Part shown: positions 3,864 through 57,738 of the stretch, in pieces
How positions within the stretch are numbered: position 1 is the first letter of the stretch
Layout: the number at the start of each line of letters is the position of its first letter
DNA from: Dictyostelium discoideum
Taxonomy: Eukaryota
Assembly (NCBI GenBank): GCA_000004695.1
Contig: CM000155.2
Location: forward strand, 3,392,001-3,456,000
Reading direction: 5' to 3'
DNA length: 64,000 nucleotides
The notes under the pieces: model-generated
The model's database searches: none
What the model was told of the DNA's origin: nothing
Seen by the model: only the letters and a program-made list of their open reading frames with translations
Made by a program: the position numbers and the translations under genes

Positions 3864-4091
3864 TGATGACCAACAAAAAGATATAGATAATAGTAATGAT
3901 ATTGTTAATGATTTTAAAACAGATAAAATATTAAAAGAAAAAGAAGAAATTTTAAATAAATTAGAATTAATAACGAAATCAATAACAGATTTATTTATTC
4001 AACAAGTTGATATCTCTACTGATACTATCGACTTTCAATCTTTTTTATCAAATATTGTAGCAACGACGACAACAACAACTGCAACAATATC

Positions 4092-4098
<7 letters not shown>
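3178..4098 (+). CDS. Coiled-coil / poly-Asn protein, 2 exons (intron 3474..3581)
   Basis: ORF 3178.. ends at a TAA that is part of a GTAAGT donor (g3474). An AT-rich intron ends in 'ttattag' at 3581. The downstream frame continues as LKRELEQIYNKKLQSLKIQYDSDSYLKFKQFELETKK... through ORF 3700..4098. Heptad-like K/E/Q-rich sequence with an (AAT)22 tract. Confidence 0.55.
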
Positions 4099-4138
<40 letters not shown>

Positions 4139-4259
4139 AAATAAAATAATAGTAATAATTGTTGTAATATTATAAAAAAAGATGTATTTTCTTTATTATT
4201 AATTTTTTTATTTTTTATTTTAAAATATACATATATATAGCGCGTTTTATATATATATA

Positions 4260-5009
4260 TTAATTTGTTGTATTTGTATCAGGAGTTGTAATTGTTGTTT
4301 TTGATTGATCTATTAATTCTGGGAAAATATTGACAAATTCGTGAATTTCATCTATACAATAATCGACATGAGGATCATTTGAAGTAGCACCAACCAAAAC
4401 AGTGTACATACCAGCTTTTTTTGCTTCTACTAAATTCTCTACAACATCATCGAAAAACACACAACCAGATGCATCGGTAGTGTCAGCTTTTTTCATTGCC
4501 ATTTGGTAGGCGACTGGATGAGGTTTTGAAAAGTCCATCATTTCTAAATAATCTAACCAAGCATCGAAACAATCATCAATTTCCAATTCACGTGTAACAC
4601 GTTTACAATGACCAATGTCGGCATTTGAAAAGATCACCTTTTTGACACCACTCTTTACACTCTTGAGACATGCATGTAATCGTGCATCTGGTTTTAAATG
4701 ACTCTTTAAATCTAATCCACCATGAACATAATCTAAATATTTGTCAATGTTTACTTCATGATTCATCATTAAACCTTTTAATGTGAGGCCATATGTTTTA
4801 TAATAATGATTTCTAACTTTATCTACCTCTTCCATTGGTAAATTCAATATGATTGACATATATTGAGTGATTCTATTACTAACTTGTGCTGCTAATCCAC
4901 ATGATTTTGGATATAATGTATTATCTAAATCAAATAATAATGTATGAATTTTACGTTCACCATTATTCTTTATTAAATTATCTGTTGAATTAATTTCTGC
5001 TACTGTCAT
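4260..5009 (-). CDS. HAD-superfamily hydrolase (SDT1/pyrimidine 5'-nucleotidase-like, subfamily IA)
   Basis: 249-aa ORF. N-terminal HAD motif I 'LLFDLDNTLY', and later 'VFFDD' motif IV-like. Single exon. Confidence 0.8.
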   Translation of the reverse strand: MTVAEINSTDNLIKNNGERKIHTLLFDLDNTLYPKSCGLAAQVSNRITQYMSIILNLPMEEVDKVRNHYYKTYGLTLKGLMMNHEVNIDKYLDYVHGGLDLKSHLKPDARLHACLKSVKSGVKKVIFSNADIGHCKRVTRELEIDDCFDAWLDYLEMMDFSKPHPVAYQMAMKKADTTDASGCVFFDDVVENLVEAKKAGMYTVLVGATSNDPHVDYCIDEIHEFVNIFPELIDQSKTTITTPDTNTTN

Positions 5010-6571
5010 TTTTATTTATTTATTATTGTAATTATTTTTTTATACTAATAAAAAAAAAAAAAAGGAATATTATGTTAATTTTTTTTTTTTTTTTTTATAA
5101 TATATAAATAAATATTTTAAAAGAGAGAGATAGAGATAGAGAGAGTGAAAGAAAGAGTGAATGAATTAATGATAAAAAAAAAAAAAAAAAAAAAAACCTA
5201 TTTATATTTAAAATTTAATATTGCCATTTAATTTTTTTTTTTTATTTTAAAAAAAAAAAAATAAAATATGTGGGATGGTGGTAAGTGTTTATTTAGGGTG
5301 TGTTTATTATGTATAATTACCAGTTGGGGAATTTGGGGGTTTAAAATGCCAAAAAAAAAAAAAAAAATTTTTTTTAAGAGGGGTGGTGTATATATATGTA
5401 TTTGAAGGAATGTAATAGTATTAAAAATTGTAATAATACCCAATAAGAAAGTTTATAGATAATGGTTTGTAATAAAATTATTATTATTATTATTATTATC
5501 TATGTTTTGAAATTATTTGTTGTAATTAATTTGATGGTATGGAAATAAAAAAAAAATGATAAAAAAAAAAAAAAAGGTGGGTTTTTTTTTTTTTAATTTT
5601 ATTTTTTTTTTTTTTTTCAAATTTATCAAAATTTTAGGAAAATAAAAATTAAATTAATTAAAATATTTTTTTTTTACCCCCCAAACCGCAAGGCACCAAA
5701 ATTTTTTTTTTAAGCAGTTATAATTCATCACTATTTTGAAACAATAACGAAAATGAATTTCATTTTTTTTTTTTCCCTAATAAATGACAAAAAATAATAA
5801 AAAAAAAAGAAAAAAAAATAAAAAAAAATAAAAAAAAAAAAAAGAAAAAAACAATTAAACAAAAGAAAAATTAATTAATTAAAATTTAAAAAAAAAATGA
5901 TTTGAAAAAAAAAAAAAAAAAAAAAATATAACCAAATGGTGCCAGGTGGAAGTTTCTAGCACTAAAAAGGTGTAAAATTATTTTTTTTTTTTTTATTTTT
6001 TTTTTTTTTTTGGTGTATGCAAACGTTATTTTAATATAACCTTAATCAAATTTAAAAAATTAAAAAAAAAAAAAATTTAAAAAAAATAAATTATTTAAAA
6101 AACATTTACAAATTTATTTTATAATAATATTATTTTTCGTACATCAAAAAATGTGAAAATATTTTAATTAATTATTTATTTTATTTTGGTTTTTTTTTTT
6201 TTTTTTTTTTTAAACAAAATAATTTTTTTTTTTTTATTTTAATCACCACTTTTAAATTTGATTAAATAAATAATTTTTTATTTATTCATTTTTAAAAAAC
6301 GATATAAAACATTTAACACTTCAAAAAAAAAAAAAATAAAAAAATAAAAAAAAACACTTCAAAAAAAATAAAAAATAAAATATAAAAATAAAAAATAAAA
6401 TCTTAAAAAACCACATATAAAATTTTCCATATCGGTATTAGTATTATTAATTTTATATTATTCTAAAATTAATCATTTATAGTTTTTATAATAAAAATAA
6501 TAATTATAATAATAATAATAATAATCCAAATTCGTAATAAGGAATAAAAAAAAAAAAAAAAAAAAAAAAAA

Positions 6572-8098
6572 ATGAATTATTATCAAAATTTAAATGAAAA
6601 TAATCAATTTAAATATAAACCAAATTATAATTATAATAATAATAATAATAAATATATAAATAATAATTATAAAAATAATAATAATAATTTATTATTAAAA
6701 ATAATGAAAAAAATTAAAATTAAAATTTTAAATTTAATTGAATTTTTAAAATTTAATTTTAAAAAAACCAATTTTAAAATAATATTTAAACAAATTGGGA
6801 TTCAATTATTATTTATGTGTTTATTATTTGGAATTATTGCACCAATTTCAATTTTACTTTATAATAATTCACCATCAAAATATTTAGGTAATAAAATCCA
6901 ATTTTCAAGTGAAGATATTTATTCACCAATTGAAAATAATATTTCAATTTATGATAGAAAAGAATTTCCACAACAATGGTCACAAGTTAATATTTTATTA
7001 GACCCACATTCACATACAACTTATTCCGATGGAACATTAACACCTGAGGAGAATATAAAATGGCATATTTCCAATGGTTTCAATGCAATGTTTATGACCG
7101 ATCATAATAAAATCGAAGGTGGGTTAGAGGGACAGCGAATCGCCCAAAAGAAATACTCTTCAAAGATATTGGTGGTGCCAGGTATCGAATGGACAAATTG
7201 CAGATGTCATTTAAATTTAATTGGTATCAATGTGAATGTACCCTTAATTAAATTCCCAACAAATAAAGAAATTAAGGAAATAATTGATTTCGTTCATTCC
7301 CAAGGTGGGTTAGTTATATTGAATCATTATCCATGGAGTTACTGGGCAGGTTTAGACCAACCCTCAATGGAAGAATGGTATGAAATGGGCATTGACTTCC
7401 TCGAGGTTGTAAATATTGACACTATGGACTACCAAGGTATAGTATTTTGTAAAGACCATGACCTTCGTTATGTGACAGGTTCTGATTTCCATAGTAATCA
7501 ACATGCTTACTCTTGGACAGTTTTCAATATACCTCAATTACCACATGGTTCAATCCCAACTCAAGATCAATTAATTAAAACATTATTAGATAAATCAACT
7601 AAAACTTCATTTGCATTCGATTCACTTGCTAGTAAAACAGTTTCAGTTAAATCAAATAAATTAACACTTAATCCAACCTTCATTTTCTTATCACCTTGGA
7701 TTTATATAGGTGGTTTCTTTCATAGTTTTTTCGAATTAAAAAAAGGAATGTATAGTTTTGTAGATGGTAGTTGTACTGAACAAATTGTTGATATTCATAC
7801 CAATGAATTAGTTTCATTAGTAGCTTGGATTTTCTTTATTTTTATAATTGCCCAATTATTATATTTCACTTTAATTTTCACTTTAAATTATTTAAAATCA
7901 AAATTTAAAAATAAATCAAAAGAATCAACAACAATAAATAAAGAAGATTTTGAAAAAGAAAAAGAAACTGAAATAGAAAATGAAAAACAATCATCAATTA
8001 ATTTAGATGACAATTGTGACAATTGTGAAAGTAGTGGTAGCAGTAGTAATTCTTCTGATATTATATCAGATAATAGTTCAATAAGTAGTAACGATTAA
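6572..8098 (+). CDS. PHP-domain phosphoesterase (TrpH/YciV, COG0613-like) with predicted transmembrane segments
   Basis: PHP motif I 'LLDPHSHTTYSDGTLTPEE' and motif II 'AMFMTDHNKIEGG'. Hydrophobic helices (LLFMCLLFGIIAPISILLY; VSLVAWIFFIFIIAQLLYFTLIF). N-terminal poly-N. Confidence 0.7.
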   Translation: MNYYQNLNENNQFKYKPNYNYNNNNNKYINNNYKNNNNNLLLKIMKKIKIKILNLIEFLKFNFKKTNFKIIFKQIGIQLLFMCLLFGIIAPISILLYNNSPSKYLGNKIQFSSEDIYSPIENNISIYDRKEFPQQWSQVNILLDPHSHTTYSDGTLTPEENIKWHISNGFNAMFMTDHNKIEGGLEGQRIAQKKYSSKILVVPGIEWTNCRCHLNLIGINVNVPLIKFPTNKEIKEIIDFVHSQGGLVILNHYPWSYWAGLDQPSMEEWYEMGIDFLEVVNIDTMDYQGIVFCKDHDLRYVTGSDFHSNQHAYSWTVFNIPQLPHGSIPTQDQLIKTLLDKSTKTSFAFDSLASKTVSVKSNKLTLNPTFIFLSPWIYIGGFFHSFFELKKGMYSFVDGSCTEQIVDIHTNELVSLVAWIFFIFIIAQLLYFTLIFTLNYLKSKFKNKSKESTTINKEDFEKEKETEIENEKQSSINLDDNCDNCESSGSSSNSSDIISDNSSISSND

Positions 8099-15224: not shown

Positions 15225-15306
15225 TGTAAGCTAAGGGATTCGAACCCTTGTATCAATGATATTGCAGCCTTAATGCAACCCCTTAGACCAGCTCGGGCAA
15301 GCTTAC
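15225..15306 (-). tRNA. tRNA-Leu (anticodon AAG), class II with long variable arm
   Basis: The minus strand reads GTAAGCTTGCCCGAGCTGGTCTAAGGGGTTGCATTAAGGCTGCAATATCATTGATACAAGGGTTCGAATCCCTTAGCTTACA. Acceptor GTAAGCT/AGCTTAC, anticodon loop TTAAGGC, T-arm AAGGG-TTCGAAT-CCCTT. It closely parallels eukaryotic tRNA-Leu-AAG. Confidence 0.85.
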
Positions 15307-17425: not shown

Positions 17426-17801
17426 AAAAAAATATTTTTTAAAAAAAAAAAAAAAAAAAAAAAAGAAAAAAATACAGGTGAGCGATTCACGCGACATACT
17501 TATACTAACTGAATATGATAATATTGCACATAAATGGCTTATTTTTGTATATAAAAAGAATAATTTAAACTACTCCCATTTTTTTATTTTATTGTTTTAT
17601 TCATTTTTATTTTATTATTTTTTTTTTTTTAATTATTAAAATAATTATTGTTTTTTTTTTCATTTTCCAGAAAAAAACAAAAAAAAAATTAACTTTATTA
17701 TTTTCTAATGATATATTTACTCTTTTCCAAAATAATGGATTAACCAAAAAAAAAAAAAAAAAAAAAAAAAGGGTTCAAATTCTATCCAAACTCTGGGGGG
17801 A

Positions 17802-26216: not shown

Positions 26217-27308
26217 TTAAAAAGTTTCATTGTTTTCTTCTTGATTATTGTTATGATTATTATTATTAAAATCTCCAACTGTTTGTTGATCGAATGAGAA
26301 TTCCTCAGTTTCTGGTTGCACTTGTTCAGTTGAAGTTATTGGTTGTGGTAATTCAATTGATTCTGGTAATTGTTGTTCAAATGAAAATGGTTCTGGTTGT
26401 TGTTGTTGTTGTGATTGTTGTTGTTGTTGTAATTGTTGGAAATGTTCTTGGCTAGAATACATTGGAATTTCATTTGTATTTACAGTTGTTTGTTGTTGAT
26501 TTGTATAATTTTCAGTTATTGTTGATGATGATGATGATGATGAATAAGTTGGTGGTGGTACATTAAATAATTGTGGTTGTTCAAAACCTGGTGTTGTTGT
26601 TGTTTCTGTATTATTATTATTATTATTAATTGCACTTTCTAATAATAATGGTACTCTATCAGGGAATAAAGTATTATTACCTCTAATTTTATTAATTACA
26701 ACAGGTATATAACTACCAACTTTAACTAAACCATTTGTAACTGTTGATAATGTATTTGGTGGAATATATTCAATCACTTTATTATAACCAATAATACTAT
26801 AACCTTTGACGATACTAAATCCTTCAATACTATAATCTTTAGCTTTACTTAAATGTTCCATTGGTAAATAAGATTGTACCAAGTTAATTGTATCTGAAAC
26901 TTTTGAATATGCCCCTAATAATAATAATAATAGTTTTATAATTAAAAAATTTAAATTAGTAATTGTTATATATTAATAATAATAATAATTATAATAATTA
27001 TTAATTAATTAATAATTACAAAAAACTCTAAGATTAGATTTTAAATCTTCAATATCTTTAAATAAGTTTCTTGCTGGACCAACAGGTATTTTCATATTGA
27101 CAATATCTTCATAGGTTAAGTTTATTAATGCACGNCCATCTATGAAATTATCTCTTAATATATCTGCATAATGTGTACCTTGTCTAGCTTGAATTGACCA
27201 ATTGTAAACATCGGTAACACTCCATAACTCAATGGTCGTGGTTGAAGATGAAGAATTTTCATTTGAACTTGATACAATTGATGTATTATGAATTGTTGTT
27301 GGTAACAT
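26217..27308 (-). CDS. SAM (sterile alpha motif) domain protein with Q/N-rich C-terminal region, 2 exons
   Basis: Exon 1 (27020..27308) is WSVTDVYNWSIQARQGTHYADILRDNFIDxRALINLTYEDIVNMKIPVGPARNLFKDIEDLK, a SAM fold. GTAATT donor. Intron 26915..27019. Exon 2 is (W)AYSKVSDTINLVQSYLPMEH.... The region contains N base calls. Confidence 0.6.
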
Positions 27309-27376
27309 TGTTTTTTTGGTTCTTGTTANATATGTGTGTGNGCGTGAGTGTCTATGACCAAGTGTAACTTAAACCT

Positions 27377-27428
<52 letters not shown>

Positions 27429-27550
27429 AATTTTGGAAAAAAAAAAAAAAAAAAAAAATATTTTTTAAAAATAAAAATAAAAATAAAAATATCANCANCA
27501 GCCCATCCAAAAAACTGACGCATCCGATTATAACTGACTCAACAAAATTN

Positions 27551-27585
<35 letters not shown>

Positions 27586-27772
27586 CGTNCACAAATAAAA
27601 TTTTAGTTAATAAATGAAAATAATAATAATCATCCCATTNTTNTTATTATCNCTATAAATGTTTTTTTTTTAATTTTTTTTGTTTAAACATTGTTTAAAC
27701 TTTTTTTTTTTTGTTAAAAAATTGTATAAACTTTTTTTTTTTTTTTTTGTATAATTCGTTTTTTTAATTTTT

Positions 27773-32112: not shown

Positions 32113-32159
<47 letters not shown>

Positions 32160-32367
32160 GGTTAATTAAAAAATAATAATAAAAAAAAAAAATTTGTGTT
32201 AATTGACACAAATTTTTTTTTTTTATTATTATTATTTTAACTAAAAAAAAGTAAGTATAAGAAAATAAAAATAAATTTCTATTTCTATTATACTTTTTTT
32301 TTTTATTAATTAAAAAAAACCTATCAAGTTATTAATATTAGAATTTGTTTTAGGGAAAAAAAAAAAG

Positions 32368-33363
32368 ATGGAATGTTCGGAATCTTTAGAATTAGTTGAT
32401 AAGTTTGCATGTGGTCATATTTTATCTAGAATGTTTAATGTTGTTATGAAACATTCAATTTGTGATTTATTAGAAGATGGACCAAAACATTATTCAGAGA
32501 TTTCAAAAATTATTGGATTTAAAGATGATTCTTATTGTTATAGATTAATGAGATATTTTGTACCTCGTAAATTATTTAAAGAAAGTGTCGTTCAAGTTGG
32601 AGTATTTTCAAAAACACCATTTAGTACTGAATTTTCAAATAATGGAACATTGAAAAAACTTGCAAAATTTCATTGTAATAGTTTCCATTATAAGCTATCA
32701 CAAGTTTTACCAGAAACTTTAGAAATTGGTGAAAATCAAGGACCTTCATCAATAGGATTATCAGATTATTGGGAACAAATTGAAAAGAATGAAATCTATA
32801 AAAATGAATTTAATGATGGTATGATTGGTTATACAACACATATTTTAAAATTTTTAAAAGGTAAAATTGATTTATCAAAATTTGAAACAGTGGTTGATAT
32901 TGGTGGTAGTCATGGTTATTTAATTGGAAGTTTATTAGATAGGTACCCAAATGTTAATGGAATTAATTTCGATACTGATATGGTTATTAATTCAAGTAAT
33001 GAGAAATACCAACATCCAAGATTAAAACATGTTGCTGGTGATTTCTTTAAATCTGTACCAGAAGCTGATTGTTACTTAATGAAACTCATTCTTCGTTGTT
33101 TTTCTGATGAAAAATGTTGTGAACTTTTAAAAATAATTTCAAAATCAATGAAATCAAATGCTAAAATAATCATTTTAGATATTATTTTAGATAGTTCAAA
33201 ATATTTAAATTTTGATACTTATTTAGATATTTTAATGATGGAAACACTTGATGGAAAACAAAGATCTTTAAGTGAATGGATAAAATTATTTGAAATGTCT
33301 GGTTTTAAAATTGATAAATATGAAAGTGGTTCTCCAAATTATTTAATAATTTCAAAGGAATAA
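32368..33363 (+). CDS. Class I SAM-dependent O-methyltransferase (COMT/plant-type OMT family), paralogue 1
   Basis: VVDIGGSHGYLIGSLLDRYPNVNGINFD (SAM-binding VDVGGGxG-like), HVAGDFF, LDIILD. About 55% identical to the neighbouring OMT. Carries LILRCFSDE in place of LHDWSDE (see findings). Confidence 0.85.
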   Translation: MECSESLELVDKFACGHILSRMFNVVMKHSICDLLEDGPKHYSEISKIIGFKDDSYCYRLMRYFVPRKLFKESVVQVGVFSKTPFSTEFSNNGTLKKLAKFHCNSFHYKLSQVLPETLEIGENQGPSSIGLSDYWEQIEKNEIYKNEFNDGMIGYTTHILKFLKGKIDLSKFETVVDIGGSHGYLIGSLLDRYPNVNGINFDTDMVINSSNEKYQHPRLKHVAGDFFKSVPEADCYLMKLILRCFSDEKCCELLKIISKSMKSNAKIIILDIILDSSKYLNFDTYLDILMMETLDGKQRSLSEWIKLFEMSGFKIDKYESGSPNYLIISKE

Positions 33364-33405
33364 TTTTTTTTTCAACTAATAATTATAGAATTCATCACTC
33401 CCCAC

Positions 33406-33439
<34 letters not shown>

Positions 33440-34308
33440 ATAAAATAAAAAAAAGAATGTGGAATAAAATAAAAAAAAATAAAAAAATAATAATAGTTTT
33501 ATTAAACTATAATTTATAAAATTTTATAAGAAAAAAAAAAAAAAAAAAATTTACTCAATTTTTAAAAGTTGTTTTTTTTTTTTGGTAAAAGATTAATTTT
33601 TTTTTTTTTTTTTTTTTATAATTTTAAAAAAATGGTGAAAATATTCAAAAAATGAACCTTTTTTATTAGTTATTGTAATTTTTAATTAAATGATCATTTT
33701 TAAAGAAAAACAATATTTGTTTTTTTTTTTTTTTTAATTTTAAAAAGATTTAGTAGATAATTGTTCACCCAAATTCACATTAGATTGAAAAAATTCTGAT
33801 TTTATAAAGTAGTTGGTATATATTATTAAATCAATGTTTAAATATCGATTTATTTTTAAATGGGTTTAAAAAATCTTTTATTTTTTTGTTTTTCATTTTT
33901 TTTAAAAACCGTCTTAAATTATTAAAAATAATTAAATTTAATTAAATTATAACCCCATTATCAAAAAAAAAAATCTAAAATTGGAAATTTTCAAAAAATG
34001 ATAATAAAATGTTTACCTTTAGTCGTCATTTATTAGCTTTTTCTTTTTTATTTTTTTAAAAATAAATAAATCAAAAAATCTTTTTATTATAATTATCATA
34101 AGATTTATGATAATTTTTATATTTTATTTTTATATTTTATAATTATTTTTTTTTATTTTTTTTATTTTCACATTTAAATTAAATTTTTTTTTTTTTTTTT
34201 TTTTTAAAAAAAAAAGTAAAACCCTTTAAAAATAAATAAAAAAAAAAAAAAAAAAAAAAACTAATCAAAAAAAAAAAAAGGCAAATACTAAAAAAAAAAA
34301 AAAAAAAA

Positions 34309-35574: not shown

Positions 35575-36498
35575 ATGATACCAAAATTTTTAACAATTTT
35601 AATTATTTAAATATTAATTTTAAATGTTTTTTCAAATACAATAAATAAAAATAATATTAATTTAAATTTTAAAAAAAAATTAAAACTAAAATTATCTTCA
35701 AATTTATTAAATGTTCATATAGTACCACATACACATGAAGTAAATATTTTTTTTTTTAATTTTTAATAAATTTTTAAAAAAAACAAATTTTAATTTATTT
35801 TTTCATTTGATTAAAAAAAAAAGGATGTTGGATGTGTAAAAACAGTTGATGAATATTATTATGGTAGTAATATGACAATAACATTTAAAGCAGTACAATA
35901 TGTATTGGATAATGTTATTCAATGTTTATTATCAAATCTTGATAGAAAATTTATATATGTAGAGATAGCATAATTTGAAATGTGGTGGAATGAACAAACT
36001 GATTCAATGAAACAAAAAGTTAAATCATTAGTAGAGAGAGGTCAACTTGAATTTATAAATGGGGATATTGTATAATGAAGGTACAACTTATTATCATGAT
36101 ATAATCGATCAAATGACATTAGGTCACCAATTCCTATGGGAAACATTCCAATTTATACCAAAGATTGGTTGGCATATTGATCCATTTGGACATAGTTGTG
36201 ATTTTTGTTATTTAAATGCACAAATGAATTTTAAAAATATTGATAAATTAATTGATTATATAAATTCATCACCTGAAAATTTTGGTTTAAATTTATTATA
36301 TTCAACTCTCTCAATTTATATAGATGCTGTAAATGATACAAATTTAATTTGGGATATTAAAACTGATGATTTCTTTCCATATGCTGATAATTATTATAGT
36401 TTTTGGACTGGTTATTATACAAGCCATCCTTCATTAAAAGGTTATATTCGTCAATCTAGTTCATTACTTCATTCAGTAGATCAATTATTAGTTACAAC

Positions 36499-36535
<37 letters not shown>

Positions 36536-36721
36536 TTAAAAGAATATCAATTATTAATTAATAGTTTAGAACCATTAAGAAAAGCAATGGCAATTGTTCA
36601 ACATCATGATGCAATTTCAGGTACTGAAGCTGAATTTGTAGTTAGTGATTATATTAATAGACTTTCAATTGGTACTAATTTATCATTTAAAATTTTAAAT
36701 AATTTAATTGGTAATTTATTA

Positions 36722-36820
<99 letters not shown>

Positions 36821-37093
36821 TATAATTATAATAATGATAATGAAAATTTGAATAATGAATTAATAATTTTAGAGAATAAATTAATTTTAATAAGATTTAA
36901 TAAAAGTGATGGATCAATAATTTCAATTAAAAATAAAACATCAAGTTTAGTTTTAGAAATTTCTCAAGAGTATATGTATTATATTTCTTCAACTGGTGAT
37001 ATTGAAAGTAGACAAAAAAGTGGTGCATATATATTTAGACCATGGATTGATAATATGTCATTACCATATGGTGGTTTTTTTTTTAATCTTTAA
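35575..37093 (+). pseudogene. Glycosyl hydrolase family 38 (alpha-mannosidase) pseudogene or truncated paralogue
   Basis: GH38 signatures VHIVPHTHEDVGC... and GWHIDPFGHS appear in different frames. In-frame TAA (YVEIA*FEMWW), at least 2 frameshifts around FINGG / GYCIM / NEGTTYYHD, long (AAT)n insertions. The ORF stops after ~340 aa, whereas GH38 enzymes are ~1000 aa. Confidence 0.5.
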
Positions 37094-38564: not shown

Positions 38565-38646
38565 CCGGCTTTGGCGCAATGGTAGCGCGATTGACTGTAG
38601 TTTTGTAGTAATCAATCGGTTGCTAGTTCGAATCTGGCAAGCCGGA
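38565..38646 (+). tRNA. tRNA-Tyr (anticodon GTA) with ~10-nt intron (38601..38610)
   Basis: CCGGCTT-TG-GCGC-AATGGTA-GCGC-G-ATTGA-CTGTAG[ttttgtagta]A-TCAAT-CGGTT-GCTAG-TTCGAAT-CTGGC-AAGCCGG-A, followed by CTTTTT. C1-G72 start and intron 3' of the anticodon as in other eukaryotic tRNA-Tyr genes. Confidence 0.85.
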
Positions 38647-38736
38647 CTTTTTAATATTTAGTTTTGTTTATATTTAGTTTTGTAACACCGCTTTTAGGTA
38701 AAAAAAAAAAAAAAAAAAAAAATATTTAGTTTTGTT

Positions 38737-39597
38737 GCTTGTGATTTCCATTTGATTAGATTGTTTTTCATTTCTTGGATTAAAGTGTTGTATTTCGAAT
38801 TTTGAAAAACCGTACCGCGATCAAGAGGATACAAGATACACGTGAAAAGTAATTCATCCTTTTCTATCCTTAATCTCGGTCAATTTTAACCAATCTTTCA
38901 AAAAAATCACCAATCCACCACGATCTACAGATCTAACTTACCAAATCGCCGATTCAAAGGAATCCCATCGAGATGAATTCCTACGCAGACGCGGCTAAAA
39001 TGGCCAACCCCTCCACCCATATGGACGAGGCATCGGAGAACTTCATTAAGGAATTCTCCACAAAAACAGCAGAGATAAAGGAGACCTACCCCAAACTATC
39101 AATAGGCCTCAAAGACATCTCCAAATACTGCGAGACCATATTGAACATGACTGCGCTCTCAACCTACGAGAAGAACAACGGATTCTACCCAATTACACTC
39201 GAATTCCCCAAAATGGATCTCAAGGGGTTAGAAGAAATGAGAAAAACACTCTCAAACTACGATATCCCAATCGACAAGATATACATAGGCAAAGGAACTA
39301 GAAAAACGATCCACCTGATGATTAAAAACGAACAATCTCTCCTAAATATCATTAGAGATAGAAGCAAATTGGGAACCTTCATCACCTCCAGTAGAGACTT
39401 CCACGTCCTCACAGGAAGAGTAAGAATTCCCAGAGAAAAGGCAGGAATAGTGGACGCCCTCATCAAAACTGCCTTTGCAGAAGAAATACCCTATGCAATA
39501 TACAATACTATATACTCCACCGACCACCTCATAGTATTCGGTCTAATAGAATGCAAAATAGGCGATCAAATGAAATCTGGCCAACACNNNNNNNNNN
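38737..39597 (+). mobile_element. 5' portion of a tRNA-gene-targeted non-LTR retrotransposon (TRE3-like), truncated by an assembly gap
   Basis: Starts ~91 bp downstream of tRNA-Tyr, and TRE3-type elements integrate ~100 bp downstream of tRNA genes. It is locally GC-richer with non-host codon usage (CTC, ACC, GCC, CGC). The 14-15 bp direct repeat atatttagttttgt(t) flanks a poly(A)23 remnant just upstream (38654-38736). Confidence 0.5.
38973..39597 (+). CDS. Retroelement ORF1 (partial; runs into N-gap)
   Basis: 208-codon ORF MNSYADAAKMANPSTHMDEASENFIKEF... that stays open to the first N. Codon usage is unlike the surrounding genes. Confidence 0.45.
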
Positions 39598-39687
39598 NNN
39601 NNNNNNNNNNNNNNNNNNNNNNNNNNNNNNNNNNNNNNNNNNNNNNNNNNNNNNNNNNNNNNNNNNNNNNNNNNNNNNNNNNNNNNN
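39598..39687. other. Assembly gap (N run) followed by low-quality poly-T sequence to ~39870
   Basis: 90 consecutive N. Flanking homopolymer-heavy sequence. Confidence 0.95.
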
Positions 39688-39719
39688 TGGGGTTCCCCTT
39701 TAATTTTTTGAAAAAAATC

Positions 39720-39755
<36 letters not shown>

Positions 39756-39801
39756 TTTTAATAATTTTTTTTTAAATAAGGGGTTAAAAAAAAAAAATTT
39801 T

Positions 39802-39872
<71 letters not shown>

Positions 39873-39953
39873 TTTAGATTGTAAAACTAGGACCTTCCCT
39901 TTCCTGGTTTTGGTGCTGATTGAAAATATTTTTTACACAATTTGTCAAAAACT

Positions 39954-40036
39954 TGCAAGAGGCGAGATTCGAACTCGCGAACCGAATGGATGAGATCTTA
40001 AGTCACACGGATTTAACCAGACTTTCCTACCCTTGC
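39954..40036 (-). tRNA. tRNA-Leu (anticodon TAA), copy 1
   Basis: The minus strand reads GCAAGGGTAGGAAAGTCTGGTTAAATCCGTGTGACTTAAGATCTCATCCATTCGGTTCGCGAGTTCGAATCTCGCCTCTTGCA. Acceptor GCAAGGG/CTCTTGC (one G-T), anticodon loop CTTAAGA, T-arm GCGAG-TTCGAAT-CTCGC, long variable arm. Confidence 0.8.
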
Positions 40037-40680
40037 TTTGGATGAAGTTATCAAAAAATTTAGAGGTATATGTTCAATTTAAACTCAAGGAGAAGCAAAT
40101 AATAATTGCGTTATCCAATTCAAAAAAAAAAATGTTCAATTTAAATATAATAATAAGGAATATTGTTAATTTGAAAGATTTATTGGATTTTTTTTTTTAA
40201 AATCATTTAGTTAAAAAAATATATTTAATTTTATAAACAATTTTTGAAAATTAGTTCTTTAAAAAATTTTTTTTTATTATTCAATTCTGTTCAAAGAAAA
40301 AAATATTAATAATTCGAGTTTCATTTTTATTATAATTAATTTTTTTTTATTTTTATTTTTTTTTTTTTTTATTTTTTTATTTTTTTTTTTTTATTTTAAA
40401 TTTTTACAAAAATGGTATAAGGGAGAACTTTGGTTTTTTATTTATTTTTTAATTTCATTGAAAATTCTAAATTTATATGAAAAAAACAATTCTCTAAATC
40501 ATTGTTTTGAGACCTTTTGTAAATAATTATTTTTTAATCTTTTAAATTAATTTATTTTTTTTCAACACTGTTTAAAAAAATATAAAAAGTTTTTTTTTTT
40601 TTTAAAAAAAATTAATTAAAAAGAAATAATAATATTTTTAAAAAACATAGTAATAAATAAATTTTAAAATTTGATAAAAG

Positions 40681-41163
40681 ATGAAAGTCCATTGCCAATT
40701 ACCAACAAATAATAATAATAATAATGAAACAATAGATTTTGAAGTAGATCAAGATAATACTTTATTAGTAGATTTAAAACAAATGATATATAATAAAACT
40801 GGTACTCCAGTAAATAGACAATCTGTAAATATTTAAAATTTTTGGTATGTCAATAATTTTATTATATTTTTACAAACTAACCCAAACCTTTTTTAATATT
40901 TTAGATTGAATTGGAAAATAAAAAGTTACCACATAGATACGATAAAAAGTCAATATCAAAACTCCACATTAATGAATCATCAAATATAAGAGTTGTTTAT
41001 GTTTTGGAAGGTGGCTGTTGCGGTGTTGGTTGTGATATTTGTGTATGTATTTTCTTTTTTTAATAAACCCTTAAAATATATATTATTAACATATTTTTTA
41101 AAAATATTTGAAAAAAAAAAAAAATAGGGTTGTGGTGGAAGTTGTAGATGTTCAATTCAATAA
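40681..41163 (+). CDS. Ubiquitin-fold protein with Gly-Gly followed by Cys-rich tail and CaaX box (MUB/UBL3-like), copy 1, 3 exons
   Basis: Exons 40681..40824, 40905..41042 and 41128..41163 (donors GTAAAT and GTATGT, acceptors TTTTAG and AATAG). The protein is MKVHCQLPTNNNNNNETIDFEVDQDNTLLVDLKQMIYNKTGTPVNRQS|IELENKKLPHRYDKKSISKLHINESSNIRVVYVLEGGCCGVGCDIC|GCGGSCRCSIQ*. It aligns to ubiquitin ([32 protein letters not shown].../...LHLVLRLRGG). Confidence 0.65.
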
Positions 41164-51000: not shown

Positions 51001-54000
51001 TTGTTTATTTGCAATCTTTAAGAGAAATAATAATTTATTTACAAAAGTAGAAGTTAAATCACAATCAATTGATTATTTAATTGAAAAGTATTGTTTAATC
51101 ATTGATAATGATGATGATAATGATGGTATCGATGATAATAGTATATTGGTTAATGGTGGTGTAGCATCAATTGATGATATGGTATTAGCAAGTACAACAG
51201 GAAAAGAAACAACAATTGTAAATAATGGTAAAAGATCATTAGCAAAATTAATTTTCCAAATTTTAAAATCAAATGTTGATTTAATCGATTGGAATAATAT
51301 TGCAACATATACAAAAAATATTTCAAAACAACAATTAAATATTATTCAAGCAATTGGTAATTTAATTGTTACACCATTATCAGTAACAAATCAAGTAACA
51401 GAATCAGATTTAATTTCAAAAACTCAATTAGATATTATTAATAATAGAATGAAAATTAAACAATATGAATTAATTTCAAATACAATCGCAACAGATTTAA
51501 TTAAACCAATTATAAATAATAGTATTTTATTCAGAATTTTAGAAATTAATTCAGGATTTGGATATTTATCAGAAATGATAATTAATAAAATTAATCAATT
51601 ATTAATAGAATTTGAAAGTAGTTATGAAATTGAAATTGAATTTACATTCACATTAAATGGTACAAATCAAGATGATAATAAAGAAATTTCAAATTCAATT
51701 AAAGAAAAGTTGACAAATTTATTAATTTCAAAATCATCAATATCAATCATTTTTAAAGAATTAAATTTAAATGAATCATTTTTAGAACAAAAATTTAATC
51801 CATCTTATTATGATTTAATAGTTTTAACAAATTTATCAACAATTACAAATTTAAATGAATCAATTGAATTTATAAATTCAATTTTATATCCAAATGGTCA
51901 TTTAATTATAATTGATACAAAAAATCAATCAAACTTCCAAGATTATGAAATTTTTGAACAATTTTTAATTTTTGATAACTTTGGAGGTGGTATTGTAGAT
52001 GATAATATTGATTGGGTTAAAATATTTCAAGATAATAATATAAATAGGGTTGTTGCAACACCAAATATTAAACCACATGTAATTCAAGTTCAAAAATCAA
52101 AATTATATGAGAAAGTAATGGGTACACTTGATGATATTACAGGGCCATATGATCAAATCATTATAATTGGTTATCAGTTACAAGGTACAGATGAAGATAA
52201 TTTCCAAAGCCCGATTATGGATATTAATAAACAAGGTACAGATATTTATAGAATTAAAACTATTGAAGAATTTGAAAAACATTGTTCGACAATACCACCA
52301 ACAGATAAATCAATTTTATTCTTTATTTCAGCAATGAATAATTTATCATTAGAAAATTATAAACAAGTTAATTTTGATTATATTAAAATCAATCAATATT
52401 TATTAGCAAATAAATTAGGATCTCTATTTATTTTAGCAACTAAAAGTGCATTAAAAGAATCAACCAATGCATTAGCAGCATCATTAATTGGTAGTTTTAG
52501 ATATTTTTCAGAGTTTTCAAATATTTTAAATTTATATTCATTCGATTTTGGTGAGGATGTATATACCCTTTCAAAAGAAATATCATTAAAATGGTTAAAT
52601 ATGGCAATTGATTTACTAGATCCAAATAAACATATTCAAAGAGAATATATTTTTAGAAATGGTAATGAAACTTGGTTTGAAAGAATTGGTAAAATTAAAA
52701 GAGTTAAATCAAAATATCAATCAAAATCATATTTAGATGATAAAGAAGATTCATTAGTCGCAAGATTAGATCAAAATTTAGAATATCAATTAGAGGCAAA
52801 ACAAAGCAATTTAAAAGAAAATGAAATTGAAGTTCAAGTTGTAGCAACAGGTATTAATTTTAAAGATAGTTTAATTTTTAGAAATCTTGTACCACCAGTT
52901 TTAGCAAATCATGAAGGTGATTTTAGTAAACCTGAATTTGGATTCGAATGTTCTGGTATCGTTTCAAGAATTGGTAGTAAAGTTAAAAAGTTTAAAGTTG
53001 GTGATTCAGTTTTAGGTATAAGTTGGAAATCAACATCATCTCATGCCATCAATTATCAAGATGCATTTGTTTTAAAACCAGATAACATTAGTTTTGTAGA
53101 AGCAGCTTCAATACCAATAGTATATTGTACTTCATTCTATTCATTATTTTATTCTGGTAATTTAAGTATTAAAAATAATGAATCAGTATTAATTCATCAA
53201 GCAAGTGGTGGTATTGGTTTAGCATGTTTAAATATTTTAAAATCATGTGGATTTAAATCAAAATTATATGTAACAGTTGGTTCAAAAGAAAAAGAAGATT
53301 ATCTAAGAGAAACCTATGGTGATTTTATAACTGGAATTTATTCATCAAGAAATACAGATTTCCTTGAAAATATTAAAACTGATCTTTCAAATAAAAATGA
53401 CAACAACAACAATAACAACAACAACAACAATGACAACAAAGAAAGTAACATCAAAGAACTTCTTGATAATGATGATGATGAAATTTTACCATTTATTCAT
53501 AAAAAAGGTGTTGATTTAATTATAAATACATTACCATTTGAATTTTTAGATACAAATTTCCTTTTACTTGGTCAAGGTGGTAGAATTGTAGATTTATCAG
53601 TTACTCATTTAAATAATAATGATACAACTGATTTTAGTAAATTCAAATGGTTCATTGGTTATAGTACAGTTGAAATATTTTATAATGGATTTGAAAAATC
53701 AAAACATATATTACAATTAATAACAGATATGATTAAAAATAAAGAATTACCATTAATACCAATTAAAGAGTATCCAATTAATCAAATTAAAGATGCAATC
53801 GACTTTATTGGTCAAAGAAAACATATTGGTAAAATTGTTATAAATCATAAATTAGGTTTAAGAGATGGTTGTTCAAATTTAGTACAAGATACAATTAAAA
53901 GTTTACAAAATCATTTAAAGGATAATTATTTAGTAGCTTCTCCAGATTTTAAATTCATGGGTGATAGTTTAGGTAAAACTATTTTATTAACAGGTCAAAC

Positions 54001-56362
54001 TGGTTTATCATTATCAATCGCTCAAGCTTGCTTATTAAATAATTATCAAGATTTAGAAGGTATAATTGTAATTTCAAAATCACCAATTAAACATGAATTA
54101 CAATATCTCATTTCATTAGCTAAATACCTTTCACGTAAAACTAGAGTTCATTTTAAACAAGCAGATTGTTCTAAATTTGATGAAATGAGAAAGGTAATAT
54201 CAGAAATTTATGAAAAAGATGATCCAAAATTATCACCAGTAGAATCAATATTTCATAATGCATTCGTACCAGTTATGTCAGAACCACAAGATATTGATAT
54301 GAAACATATTGATGATGCATATGATGCTAAAACAACTGGTGCAATGAATTTGTATATGTTAATGAGTATGTATGACTGGAAATTGAAAAACTTTTTTTTT
54401 AGTTCTTCCATTACTTCAGTTTCAGGTAGTTCACGTCAAGCAGGTTATTGTGGTGCAAATCTTGTATTAGAATCAATGGCTAAAGTTATTCAATCTCAAG
54501 GTATAAGATGTTCAACAATTTGTTGGGGTATTATTGGTGATACTGGTTATGTTTCACGTAATGAATCGGTTGCTAAATTTTTAAACGGTCTAGGTAATGC
54601 CCCAATGCCTTTGAATATGGTTTTAGGTTCATTAGATTTATTATTACAACAACCAACCCTATCAACAGATACTACAATCATTGCATCATTTGATTTTAAT
54701 AATTTACCAAAACTATCAAGAGATGGAAGTAATAATATTAGTTATAAATTTGATTACTTTACAAATCCAATTCAATCAAATCAAAATAATTGTTCAAGTG
54801 ATGATCTTTCAATTAGAGAACAAATTCTTGCAAAATTTTCAGAGTTTTTATCAGTCGATGATCAATCTAAAATTAATTTAGATATAAAATTATTAGATTA
54901 TGGTGCAGATTCAATGGTAATTGTAGAGTTAAAGAATTATTTAGATAAAACATATACACCAAATATTTTATCTATACAACAACTTCAAAATATTACAATT
55001 AATCAATTAATTCAATCAGTAACAGATGCAATGAATAAATTAAATGGTAATGAAAATAAATCAATTAAAAAATCAAATAAATTAGTACAACAAAAACAAA
55101 TCGATTGGGTAAAAGAAATTAAATTAGATTCATCTATAAAACCAACTGATGAAATGATTAAATTATTTAAACAACTACAACAACAAGCATCAACAACAAC
55201 AAGTAATACAGTATTTTTAACAGGTTCAAGTGGTTTTATTGGAATTTATATTCTATTTTATTTAATTAAATCAGTTAATTGTAAAATTGTATATTGTTTA
55301 ATTAGAAGAAAAACAATTGAAGAAGCAACAACATTTTTAATTGAATTTTTAAAAGTTCATCAATTATATAATCAATTAACAACAGATGAAATTAATAAAA
55401 TCAAACCAGTATTAGGTGATTATACATTAGATTCATTTGGACTTTCAGTTGATCAATATACAAATATTTCAAATAATGTAGATTTAATTATAAATAGTGC
55501 TGCAAGTGTAAACTATCAAATGGGTTATGAAGATTCAAAAGTTGAAAGTGTAGAAGGTGTACTTCAATGTTTAAGATTTTCATGTCATAATAAATTAAAG
55601 AAATTATTTCAAGTTAGCACTCTTGGCATTTATTCAGATGATAAAAGAGATAATTTAGATGATTATACATTCGCTCAAATTGATCCAAAAATTATTCAAT
55701 CTAAAAATTCAATTATCAATGGTTATTTACAAGGTAAAATCGTATCAGAATATCATATTAAAGAAGCTGCAAATAGAGGTATACCTTGTTGTATCATTAG
55801 ATTACCTTTTATTGGTCCAAATCCAAATACTGGTGTTGGTAGAGATTTAGATTTATTTCAAACATTATTTCAATCATGTTATGCAATGTCAACATATCCA
55901 AAACAAGAATCAGGTCTTCAATTTTATGCAACACCAGTTACTTGGGCAGCTCAAAACTTATCATTCATTTCATTGAATCCAAAATGTTGGTCAACTTCAT
56001 CAAATCATCCATCATCAATTTCAGAAAATTTAACATGCTACAGTTTATTTGGTGAATCAATTTGTTTTAATGTTTTATTAACAGAATTAGCAACACAATT
56101 AAAATGGAAACCAACTTCATCTGGTGAATTTTTAAAGAAATTGAGATCATTCCCAAATGAACCATCTTGTAAAAAACTTCATATTGTCTTAAAAAATACA
56201 AAAAATTTATTACTCAATGTTTATATACCTGGTAATTATAAATTAAATCCAACTTTAAAACAATTACTACAATCAAATAATACTTATGAAGGTTGGAAAA
56301 TTACACCAGAAATGATTTTAACTCATTTATCTTTTATCTTTAAAAAAAAATTAAATAAATAA
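46259..56362 (+). CDS. Type I iterative polyketide synthase (KS-AT-DH-cMT-ER-KR-ACP-thioester reductase), 7 exons, ~3080 aa
   Basis: Exons 46259..46388, 46574..46647, 46882..46990, 47089..47278, 47384..47600, 47734..47995 and 48108..56362. All junctions are GT/AG and phase-consistent. Motifs: KS DTACSSS / HGTSTQIGD / [10 protein letters not shown]; AT GHSLGE; c[12 protein letters not shown]; [14 protein letters not shown]; [13 protein letters not shown]; [11 protein letters not shown]; [12 protein letters not shown] and YLQGK. Confidence 0.9.
46670..46860. repeat. Minisatellite inside PKS intron 2: (aat)n-aaaattacaaat units
   Basis: About 5 tandem ~27-33-bp units, visible directly. Confidence 0.8.
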
Positions 56363-56552
56363 AAGTGAATATCAATAAATAAATAAAATTTTTTTTTTTT
56401 TTTTCTCATAAATCGGTCATTTTTTATTTTTTATATTACTCATTGGCAATTTTTAAATCAAAAAAAAAAAAAAAGAAATATTATAAAGGATCAGTGGGTT
56501 AATTAAAAAGTTGAGATTGAAATTTTTATTTTTATTTTTTTCTTCAAAACCT

Positions 56553-56635
56553 TGCAAGAGGCGAGATTCGAACTCGCGAACCGAATGGATGAGATCTTAA
56601 GTCACACGGATTTAACCAGACTTTCCTACCCTTGC
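56553..56635 (-). tRNA. tRNA-Leu (anticodon TAA), copy 2 (identical to copy 1)
   Basis: Same 83-nt sequence as 39954..40036. Confidence 0.8.
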
Positions 56636-57222
56636 TTTGGATGGTTTTAAAAAATTTTAGAGGTATATGTTCAATTTTAATATAATAATCTTAAAGATTT
56701 ATTGGATTTTTTTTTAAAATCGTTTAGTTAAGAAAATATATTTAATTTTATAAACAATTTTTGAAAATTAGTTCTTTAAATAATTTTTTTTTATTGTTCA
56801 TTTCTGTTCAAAGAAAAAAATATTATTATTTTTTTGAGAGTTTCATTTTTATTATAATTAATTTTTTTTTATTTTTGTTTTTTTTTTTTTATTTTTTTAT
56901 TTTTTTTTTTTTTATTTTAAATTTTGACAAAAATGGTATAAGGGAGAGATGGTGCCGATTAAACTTTGGTTTTTTTTTTATTTTTTTAATTTCATTGAAA
57001 ATTCTAAATTTATATGAAAAAAACAATTCTCTAAATCATTGTTTTGAGACCTTTTGTAAATAATTATTTTTTAATCTTTTAAATTAATTTATTTTTTTTC
57101 AACACTGTTTAAAAAAATATAAAAAGAAGTTTTTTTTTTTAAAAAAAATTTAATCAATTAAAAAGAAATAATAATATTTTTAAAAAACATAGTAATAAAT
57201 AAATTTTAAAATTTGATAAAAG

Positions 57223-57707
57223 ATGAAAGTCCATTGCCAATTACTAACAAATAATAATAATAATAATGAAACAATAGATTTTGAAGTAGATCAAGATAAT
57301 ACTTTATTAGTAGATTTAAAACAAATGATATATAATAAAACTGGTACTCCAGTAAATAGACAAGCTGTAAATATTTAAAAGTTTTGGTATGTCAATAATT
57401 TTATTTTATTTTTACTAACTAACACAAACCTTTTTTAATATTTTAGATTGAATTGGAAAATAAAAAGTTACCACATAGATACGATAAAAAGTCAATATCA
57501 AAACTCCACATTAATGAATCATCAAATATAAGAGTTGTTTATGTTTTGGAAGGTGGCTGTTGCGGTGTTGGTTGTGATATTTGTGTATGTATTTTCTTTT
57601 TTTAATAAACCCTTAAAAATATATTATTAACATATTTTTTAAAAAATATTTGAAAAATAAAAAAAAAATAGGGTTGTGGTGGAAGTTGTAGATGTTCAAT
57701 TCAATAA
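57223..57707 (+). CDS. Ubiquitin-fold / Cys-rich / CaaX protein, copy 2, 3 exons
   Basis: Same exon structure as copy 1 (exon 3 57672..57707 GCGGSCRCSIQ*). Two amino-acid differences (L8, A48). Intact ORF. Confidence 0.65.
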
Positions 57708-57718
57708 ATTTCATAATG

Positions 57719-57738
57719 AGATGTGAGATCTCACATCT
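57719..57738. repeat. 20-bp perfect palindrome agatgtgagatctcacatct at the distal edge of duplication copy 2
   Basis: Exact self-complementarity. The left half overlaps the last shared bases (gagat) of the duplicated unit. Confidence 0.8.

Follow-up and report, generated by a model that had tools for sequence, protein, structure and literature searches.

The region just downstream of the tRNA-Tyr gene described here has very probably been hit several times by Dictyostelium discoideum TRE3-type non-LTR retrotransposons. The region lies within a 64-kb stretch of DNA, hereafter the window, to which positions refer unless another locus is named. TRE3-type elements are L1-like and move by target-primed reverse transcription, the APE endonuclease and reverse transcriptase both being element-encoded. 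They insert close behind tRNA genes transcribed by Pol III, on the downstream side, and point the same way as the tRNA. Proceeding outward from tRNA-Tyr, we found a 16-bp tandem duplication, a very short insertion (termed the mini-insertion), an antisense fragment of a family that we call F2, and, located inside this fragment, an element of a second family, F1.

The intron-containing tRNA-Tyr(GUA) gene occupies positions 38565–38647 of the plus strand. Its presence, stated in the original prediction, was borne out by an ARAGORN call (anticodon GTA) and by a score of 57.9 bits against Rfam RF00005, in which 13 nt inserted at the anticodon loop represent the intron. A scan for B boxes identified the internal B box of the gene (AGTTCGAATCT, 38625–38635), and the sequence directly 3' of the gene is a T5 Pol III terminator (38648–38652). 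No external B box with two or fewer mismatches was found in the interval between tRNA-Tyr and F1. The second tRNA gene considered here, tRNA-Leu(UAA), is located on the minus strand (39954–40036; ARAGORN, Rfam 49.1 bits) and is convergent with tRNA-Tyr.

The window contains exactly three copies of the 14-mer ATATTTAGTTTTGT, all on the plus strand next to tRNA-Tyr. Copy 1 (38654–38667) lies just 3' of the gene and is separated by a TT filler (38668–38669) from copy 2 (38670–38683), while copy 3 is at 38722–38735. The original prediction was correct in the number of repeats and in the positions of the first and third, and placed the beginning of the second at 38669 rather than 38670. Copies 1 and 3 have 16 nucleotides in common (AATATTTAGTTTTGTT), and copy 2 has the 14-nt core only. 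Because the 14-mer had no match in any of the TRE families examined, we take it to be target DNA.

Between copies 2 and 3 is the 16-mer AACACCGCTTTTAGGT (38684–38699), followed by a run of 23 adenines starting at 38700. Fifteen of the 16 nucleotides are identical to the 3' terminus of a TRE3-type family, F2b (...ATACACCGCTTTTAGGT(A)13), and the match abuts the F2b poly(A). This match identifies the segment at 38684–38721 (plus strand), composed of AACACCGCTTTTAGGT and 22–23 A, as a genuine, extremely 5'-truncated F2b insertion, whose 14-bp target-site duplication is formed by copy 2 on the left and copy 3 on the right. A truncated non-LTR insertion with a target-site duplication had been proposed between these two repeats, and the F2b match bears this out. 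It had also been described as nested, which is incorrect: the mini-insertion sits beside the ORF1-bearing element and not inside it, and belongs to another family. The F2b reference is a single 765-nt copy (L004 15372–16136), from which the first base of the mini-insertion differs. A homologue search with the C-terminus of F2b ORF2 returned relatives only in D. dimigraforme and D. citrinum, and the family therefore rests on this one reference copy.

Alternatively, no truncated retroelement would be involved, and the three 14-mers and the A23 run would simply reflect slippage and the low complexity of AT-rich intergenic DNA. Features of both kinds are plentiful. The window contains 31 A runs of at least 20 nt, and since long A runs are this common, A23 on its own is weak evidence. 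Direct repeats are likewise common in this genome: counting non-trivial repeats of at least 14 nt within 100 nt, we obtained 27 merged entries in the window (four of which are the copies at this site) as compared with ~2 pairs per simulation in a Markov-3 control. What raises the site above chance is that a 15-nt remnant match abuts the 3'-terminal poly(A) of a retroelement, with only ~2e-5 remnant-type matches expected by chance in the DNA examined. In addition, a second mini-remnant of like layout, from a sister family, occurs at L004 17246–17345 (48 nt plus A19, flanked by a 16-bp target-site duplication). For the pair formed by repeats 2 and 3, slippage or low complexity is effectively refuted by the match to the F2b 3' end, and we consider it highly improbable as an account of the site as a whole.

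The truncated F2b insertion is unusually close to its tRNA gene. Its duplicated target begins 7 nt past the 3' end of tRNA-Tyr, and its 5' junction is 36 nt from the gene, or 20 nt if the tandem copy is left out. [quoted passage not shown] The mini-remnants at window position 38684 and at L004 17262 are independent, come from sister families, and both begin at a homologous AACACCGC, which could be a preferred stop or switch point for reverse transcriptase in the 3' UTR.

Repeat 1, the TT filler, and repeat 2 make up a 16-bp tandem duplication of flanking DNA, which simple target-primed reverse transcription does not explain. Possibly, target-primed reverse transcription was aborted at exactly the nick used by the mini-insertion and left a duplication as its only scar. 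Such a scar would result if retrotransposition had been attempted a second time from one staggered cut and the insert had been almost wholly lost, and we put this forward tentatively, as a reading that is somewhat doubtful on balance. The 16-bp unit is inside the 11–16-bp range of F2-type target-site duplications at other sites, its left boundary (the presumed first-strand nick) is common to the duplication of the mini-insertion, and repeated TRE hits on a single tRNA gene have been documented (PMC5006619). Against this, all that remains is TT, and slippage yields many similar short tandem duplications in the window. As no insert-derived sequence is present, a scar and replication slippage are not distinguishable, and slippage accounts for the third repeat copy equally well as a second integration. 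The earlier suggestion of repeated use of the same site consequently holds in one respect only. The third repeat copy does not establish a second integration, whereas repeated use itself is borne out by an independent gap-free assembly (GCA_054883475.1), in which five or more TRE3-type pieces follow this tRNA-Tyr.

Beyond copy 3 is an antisense internal ORF2 fragment of the TRE3-type family F2 (38737–38802, minus strand), corresponding to F2 reference positions 3272 to 3202. By BLAST, window positions 38732–38802 are 97% identical over 71 nt to the reverse complement of L005 4696–9253. The fragment is 87–90 nt in total and is split by F1, resuming 3' of the F1 poly(A) at L004 15334–15364. The last 10–11 nt of its left part, (A)TTTCGAATTT at 38792–38802, constitute the left target-site duplication of F1, which inserted with two filler nucleotides and a duplication of 10–11 bp.

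These observations bear on where F1 begins. The original prediction had the element starting at 38737, ~91 nt from the tRNA, with 38737–38972 as a 236-nt leader, and the GC content past repeat 3 is indeed somewhat higher (27% in 38737–38802). However, five other F1 copies align to the window only from AAAAACCGTACCGCG (38805), and the DNA upstream of this point is unrelated. The first 66 nt of the supposed leader (38737–38802) are the antisense fragment of the other family into which F1 inserted, and this fragment continues past the F1 poly(A) after the 10–11-bp duplication. A boundary at 38737 is thus refuted by the comparison of copies, by the BLAST match to F2, and by the resumption of the fragment, and we give it almost no credence. 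With homology beginning at 38805, F1 is located 157 nt from tRNA-Tyr and not ~91 nt.

The antisense F2 fragment itself is not explained by simple target-primed reverse transcription. We considered twin priming and discarded it, since the inverted sequence matches F2 at 97% identity whereas its sense-oriented neighbours come from other families (F3 and F2b), and since the fragment is outside the duplication of the mini-insertion. Its capture through template switching onto an antisense TRE transcript is possible.

The F1 sequence in the window (38803–39587, plus strand) is the 5' part of an element cut by an assembly gap. It starts with the 2-nt filler TG, followed by a 5' UTR from 38805, the ORF1 ATG at 38973, and codons 1–205 of ORF1. 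As originally described, a GC-richer element bearing an ORF1 runs into the N gap: GC content is 41% in 38803–39587 as compared with 15–18% in the flanks, and the open frame meets a run of 100 N. Positions 38805–39587 are 99.2% identical to full 5.27-kb copies in loci L001 and L002, starting from the first bases of these copies. The ORF1 is 96–99% identical to D. discoideum proteins. In searches with F1 and F2b proteins, all database matches were labelled 'hypothetical protein', and a literature search with DDB_G identifiers returned no match.

The architecture of F1 was read from full sister copies (99% identity; L002 9650–14920), the window copy comprising the 5' UTR and 205 ORF1 codons. In full copies, ORF1 encodes 416 aa, and ORF2, which is in the -1 frame, starts on an ATGA overlap, where the ORF1 stop and ORF2 ATG overlap at L002 11077. 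The -1 frame also occurs in F2 and therefore does not discriminate between subfamilies. The N-terminus of ORF2 is APE-like, aligning with the Exo_endo_phos domain of F2 at E = 7e-8, and ORF2 also has an RVT_1 domain (E = 4e-34) and, in its translation, a CX2C...HX4C motif. Copies end in a poly(A) tail and are flanked by 8–11-bp target-site duplications. The full sister copies accordingly have a non-LTR architecture: they lack LTRs, end in poly(A), and contain ORF1 and an ORF2 in which APE and RT are followed by a C-terminal zinc-finger (zinc-knuckle) motif. An AlphaFold model of ORF1 had a mean pLDDT of 51. With this poor model, a Foldseek search of the PDB yielded no match at E ≤0.001, and the folds that it returned were of a generic beta-alpha-beta-beta-alpha-beta kind, human L1 ORF1p ranking ninth (E = 0.03, TM 0.24).

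The gap (39588–39687) is 100 N in length, a nominal size. On its right is a low-quality, A-rich segment (39688–39872, minus strand) that aligns to L005 9095–9253 and corresponds to the 5' end of F2, including the region of the ORF1 start. This minus-strand F2 copy runs leftwards into the gap. Its 5' junction is marked by a copy of the target-site duplication GTTTAGATTGT (39873–39883), 70 nt downstream of tRNA-Leu, and the same 11-mer occurs at both ends of the 4.56-kb F2 element in L005 (4685–4695 and 9254–9264). The original prediction did not anticipate that the sequence to the right of the gap is where a second TRE3-type element, convergent with the first, has its 5' end. This element belongs to tRNA-Leu(UAA), which is the gene targeted by the minus-strand F2 element.

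We traced the flanks of the gap in GCA_054883475.1 through the window ORFs at 32368–33360 and 36059–37090 and protein P0006. The left junction, consisting of the three repeats, the remnant, and A23, is identical base for base in that assembly, and what follows the left flank there is a TRE array of no less than 7.5 kb. A second tRNA-Tyr is also present beyond this flank. The gap in the window therefore conceals a TRE array and probably the second tRNA-Tyr as well. The gap presumably arose because near-identical repeats could not be assembled. In GCA_054883475.1 the two gap flanks are ~78 kb apart and inverted, such that the join in the window is not colinear. Between the window and L004 there are five substitutions, all of which are inside F1, while the unique flanks are identical. 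With the substitutions confined to F1, one of the assemblies may combine reads of different F1 copies. The conflict in order need not be a scaffolding error and could possibly reflect a ~78-kb inversion between closely related laboratory genomes, mediated by the convergent TRE clusters.

These discrepancies, along with the position of F1 next to an N gap, could be taken to mean that contamination or a chimeric join has misplaced the GC-richer, ORF1-bearing segment and that no such insertion really exists behind tRNA-Tyr. The protein matches instead identify the segment as native D. discoideum repeat DNA. Furthermore, the independent assembly reads without interruption or difference from tRNA-Tyr through the repeats, the remnant, and the antisense fragment to the F1 5' junction, and in it F1 reaches a poly(A) and a matching target-site duplication of 10–11 bp within the antisense F2 fragment (L004). 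We thus regard misplacement as very unlikely. The doubt is confined to the join across the gap, and the presence of the F1 element stands.

Several integrations of TRE3-type elements behind tRNA-Tyr would each have followed the same course. The endonuclease would nick the bottom strand at an AT-rich site, after which reverse transcription would be primed on the poly(A) tail and end with a variable degree of 5' truncation. Targeting would occur via the Pol III transcription complex and the B box, as published for TREs. Taken as a set, the more unusual readings proposed for this locus are improbable, namely a duplication-only scar at the nick of the mini-insertion, a template-switch fragment, a TRE-mediated inversion, and a stop point at AACACCGC.

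A pile-up of TREs behind a tRNA gene is an ordinary phenomenon in D. discoideum that is already known and well described. The main value of the analysis is in annotation, as it provides corrected boundaries for four TRE pieces and flags the order and orientation across the gap as conflicting with an independent assembly. The minor oddities, if followed genome-wide, could inform on abortive or template-switching TRE3 retrotransposition and on TRE-mediated rearrangements, none of which a single locus is enough to demonstrate.

With regard to family, the sequence supports F1 being a tRNA-gene-targeted, TRE3-type non-LTR retrotransposon located downstream of, and co-oriented with, tRNA-Tyr, in agreement with the TRE3-type assignment and orientation originally predicted. 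In L004 (copy 2), F1 starts 61 nt past a tRNA-Tyr-like gene, and in L002 it starts 84 nt past tRNA-Phe. The 157 nt in the window become 88 nt once 69 nt of small insertions are subtracted. The distances of F1 therefore agree with the published 40–150 bp in a small sample of three tRNA-adjacent copies, other copies being further out in tandem arrays. F2 is found 70–81 nt behind tRNA-Leu and 102 nt behind tRNA-Phe. All tRNA-adjacent copies of F1 and F2 (window, L002, L004, and L005) keep the orientation of the tRNA. No copy of F2b or F3 was seen directly beside a tRNA gene; those seen are further out in arrays and are tRNA-oriented. Sequential hits on the same tRNA gene and tandems are characteristic of TREs, which occupy 61% of tRNA genes (PMC5006619). 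The ORF1 proteins of the different families here are unrelated to one another, consistent with that study.

The families F1, F2, F2b, and F3 can be assigned to the names TRE3-A to TRE3-D by inference only, F3 being represented by L002 14921–20205. F1 is probably TRE3-A, as judged from its length of ~5.2 kb and from its outnumbering the other families in the loci sampled. The TRE3 family comprises TRE3-A (formerly Tdd-3), -B, -C, and -D.

Other known systems resemble these elements to differing extents. Skipper-2 (DGLT-P) also integrates downstream of D. discoideum tRNA genes (PMC5006619). It is, however, an LTR element (Ty3/gypsy) with an integrase and a chromodomain, whereas the elements here have poly(A), no LTRs or other terminal repeats, and an APE endonuclease, with APE and RT as their only domains. 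Like the insertions here, those of mammalian LINE-1 have poly(A) at the 3' junction and duplications of 7–16 bp, can be extremely 5'-truncated, carry a few untemplated nucleotides where their 5' end joins the target, and arise at AT-rich nick sites. Unlike the elements here, LINE-1 does not target tRNA genes, and its ORF1p has no detectable similarity to F1 ORF1, for which the structure model is poor (pLDDT 51).

TRE5-A (formerly DRE) is in the same superfamily, has the same order of ORF2 domains, and also targets tRNA genes. TRE5 elements integrate ~48 bp upstream of tRNA genes, run opposite to them, and have A, B, and C modules, with the A module duplicated, whereas F1 is downstream and co-oriented and so does not belong to this group. 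A TRE5-A-like copy in L002 (~1910–7865, minus strand) has a duplicated module of ~200 bp and lies ~50 bp upstream of tRNA-Phe. By BLAST, this copy had no similarity to F1, F2b, or F3, and a single 44-nt match to F2 (86% identity).

The closest correspondence is to TRE3. Like F1, TRE3 has two ORFs and an ORF2 with APE, RT, and a zinc-finger motif, and the ORF2 of TRE3-A is in the -1 frame relative to ORF1 (PMC5911963). We found no demonstrable difference between TRE3 and F1, the mini-insertion alone being closer to its tRNA gene (7–36 nt versus 40–150 bp). TRE3 and the elements here are also alike in ending in a poly(A) tail, in being frequently 5'-truncated, and in having target-site duplications.

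The window, Dictyostelium discoideum DNA of ~22% GC, contains a tRNA-Tyr(GTA) gene on the plus strand (38565–38647; ARAGORN; Rfam, 57.9 bits), which according to Rfam has an intron-sized insert in its anticodon loop, and a tRNA-Leu(TAA) gene on the minus strand (39954–40036; ARAGORN; Rfam, 49.1 bits). Downstream of tRNA-Tyr, the 14-mer ATATTTAGTTTTGT occurs exactly three times, and the segment after the third repeat is 41% GC. In it, an open frame (ORF1) begins with an ATG at 38973 and is uninterrupted for 205 codons, until it meets a 100-N gap (39588–39687). This frame is 96–99% identical to D. discoideum proteins, and through it we reached full copies of the element, designated F1, at two loci (L001 and L002) of the gap-free D. 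discoideum assembly GCA_054883475.1. The window matches these copies (99.2% identity) only from position 38805 on (AAAAACCGTACCGCG...). Upstream of the homologous point, five other F1 copies carry unrelated DNA, and F1 therefore starts at 38805, after a filler TG, rather than at 38737 as originally predicted.

A complete F1 copy (L002, 9650–14920) is 5.27 kb in length. Its ORF1 encodes 416 amino acids, and its ORF2 starts at an ATGA overlap in the -1 frame. The N-terminus of ORF2 aligns to the Exo_endo_phos domain of a sister family (E = 7e-8), and ORF2 also contains RVT_1 (E = 4e-34); a CX2C...HX4C motif is present in the full copy. F1 ends in ...AATCCAATATT(A)n and makes target-site duplications of 8–11 bp. 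A fold search with ORF1 returned no significant match, the query model being weak (pLDDT 51). F1 is the commonest of four TRE3-type families in the sampled loci (F1, F2, F2b, and F3; F1 and F3 are 65–70% identical, F2 and F2b 69%), and we infer TRE3-A as its candidate name. By BLAST, the whole window matched five family references at 38732–39587 only, and no F1, F2, F2b, F3, or F4 was detectable near the window tRNA-Leu genes at 15225–15306 and 56553–56635. D. citrinum and D. dimigraforme evidently carry TRE-like elements as well (proteins P0007–P0009). A D. citrinum protein annotated at 163 amino acids (P0005) begins with residues resembling the APE of F2 ORF2 and continues as F1 ORF1-like sequence, and looks like a gene-model chimera.

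The supposed leader of F1 belongs to a different family: window 38732–38802 is 97% identical, in antisense, to the interior of F2 ORF2 (positions 3272–3202). At the gap-free locus this fragment resumes directly after the F1 poly(A), as (A)26 TTTTGAATTTAAACCTGTTTTGGTGAAATT, and the F1 duplication is 10–11 bp, (A)TTT[C/T]GAATTT. The antisense F2 fragment, 87–90 nt long, was therefore already in place when F1 inserted into it. Twin priming was considered as the source of the fragment and rejected, because the adjoining sense pieces come from other families.

The three repeats start at 38654, 38670, and 38722, the second one nucleotide beyond its predicted start (38669). Copies 1 and 3 have 16 nt in common, and copy 2 matches only the 14-nt core. 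Between copies 2 and 3 lies AACACCGCTTTTAGGT, a 16-mer found once in the window, followed by an A23 run. A 765-nt 5'-truncated F2b copy at L004, a locus orthologous to the window, ends in ...ATACACCGCTTTTAGGT(A)13, such that 15 of the 16 nt constitute the extreme F2b 3' terminus adjoining poly(A) (chance expectation ~2e-5). The sister family F2 ends in ...AACAAACACCGCCGAAAAG...CACAGGT(A)n. A comparable F2 mini-remnant in L004 (17246–17345) consists of 48 nt (AACACCGCCGAAAAG...CACAGG) and A19, flanked by a perfect 16-bp target-site duplication, ATGTTATATTTGTATT. F2-type duplications elsewhere are 11–16 bp, and the 14-bp duplication here thus fits. The predicted severely 5'-truncated non-LTR insertion between repeats 2 and 3 is thereby confirmed, but it is not nested: it adjoins F1 rather than lying within it, and comes from another family. 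Its site is 7–36 nt behind tRNA-Tyr, nearer than the canonical range. Both mini-remnants have a homologous start, AACACCGC, and truncation may be favored at this point.

A 16-bp tandem duplication of target DNA comprises repeat 1, TT, and repeat 2, and the 14-mer matched none of the TRE families examined. Tentatively, the extra copy might have been left by an integration that aborted at the nick used by the mini-insertion, as a scar consisting of the duplication only. Plain slippage could also have produced it; D. discoideum DNA is rich in short direct repeats at close range, with 27 merged entries in the window versus ~2 pairs per Markov-3 simulation. Both explanations fit, and the repeated use of one integration site that was read from the third copy is somewhat doubtful. 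The 10-mer TAGTTTTGTA occurs in the anticodon/intron region of tRNA-Tyr (38598–38607) and again where repeat copy 2 ends (38675–38684), probably by chance in AT-rich DNA.

With window ORFs as anchors, we recovered the orthologous locus (L003 and L004). Unique DNA is identical between the assemblies except for homopolymer lengths and window sites of low-quality appearance, which suggests, from sequence, the same strain lineage. Ten single Ns and small groups of mismatches to the other assembly, for example GGGG or CCCC runs (27135–27652, 32154–32160, 33400–33408, and 34223–34226), resemble low-quality read ends of the window assembly. Within F1 ORF1, five substitutions relative to L004 cluster at 39096–39342, versus none in 13 kb of unique flank outside low-quality and homopolymer sites, suggesting that one assembly mixed reads of different F1 copies at the repeat edge.

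Past the window break, L004 contains in order an internally deleted F1 (2.6 kb), the 765-nt F2b with a GTTCCAC duplication, an F3 tail (1.06 kb), the 48-nt F2 remnant, a second tRNA-Tyr-like gene (17522–17605), and a second F1 61 nt downstream of it. This gene is 92% identical to the window gene and flanks, and ARAGORN reports it without an anticodon assignment; if the assemblies agree, it is hidden inside the gap. To the right of the gap, 39688–39872 reproduces, with noise, the A-rich 5' end of a minus-strand F2 element (4.56 kb), which is located 70–81 nt downstream of the minus-strand tRNA-Leu. At L005, the locus of the right flank, this element has the duplication GTTTAGATTGT at both ends, and the right-hand copy is kept at window 39873–39883. 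With F1 before the gap, two convergent TRE3-type elements therefore flank it. In GCA_054883475.1, the left flank maps to ~3,353,105 in forward orientation (L004, JBTAPE010000001.1 3339581–3360615) and the right flank to ~3,274,823 in reverse (L005, 3263562–3284044) on the same 3.6-Mb contig. The flanks are thus not adjacent but ~78 kb apart and inverted, which is compatible with a single ~78 kb inversion that has its breakpoints in the TRE clusters, or with one assembly having a contig in the wrong orientation. That F1 lies behind tRNA-Tyr is well established, unlike the window join across the gap. Also in the window, a tRNA-Leu(UAA) and a ubiquitin-like gene (DDB_G0293906-like) occur twice in a segmental duplication (39954–41100 and 56544–57722), and there are large polyketide-synthase paralogues, one pair inverted (52980–56481 and 61194–57825); L005 has an additional paralogue (97%).

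Clean F1 copies follow tRNA-Phe (L002) at 84 nt and the second tRNA-Tyr-like gene (L004) at 61 nt, both co-oriented with the tRNA. In the window the distance from tRNA-Tyr is 157 nt, or 88 nt after subtraction of 69 nt of small insertions. TRE5 integrates ~48 bp upstream of tRNA genes in opposite orientation, unlike the downstream, co-oriented F1. A TRE5-A-like copy in L002 (~1910–7865, with a duplicated module of ~200 bp) is ~50 bp upstream of tRNA-Phe (1786–1859, minus strand) in opposite orientation, and has no similarity to F1 by BLAST. This tRNA-Phe is occupied on both sides: 102 nt downstream, beyond a motif resembling an external B box, lies a 5'-truncated F2 whose duplication, CACGGTTTGGTGATTG, is 16 bp long.

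Several oddities deserve mention, although a single locus is too little to establish them: the extra repeat copy consisting of a duplication only, the antisense F2 fragment, the closeness of the mini-insertion to tRNA-Tyr, the common AACACCGC start, and the possible inversion. With its boundaries corrected, the core of the original prediction holds. [quoted passage not shown] TREs accompany 61% of D. discoideum tRNA genes, and sequential integration at one tRNA produces tandems (PMC5006619); the locus is a textbook TRE3 cluster, whose biology is already known.
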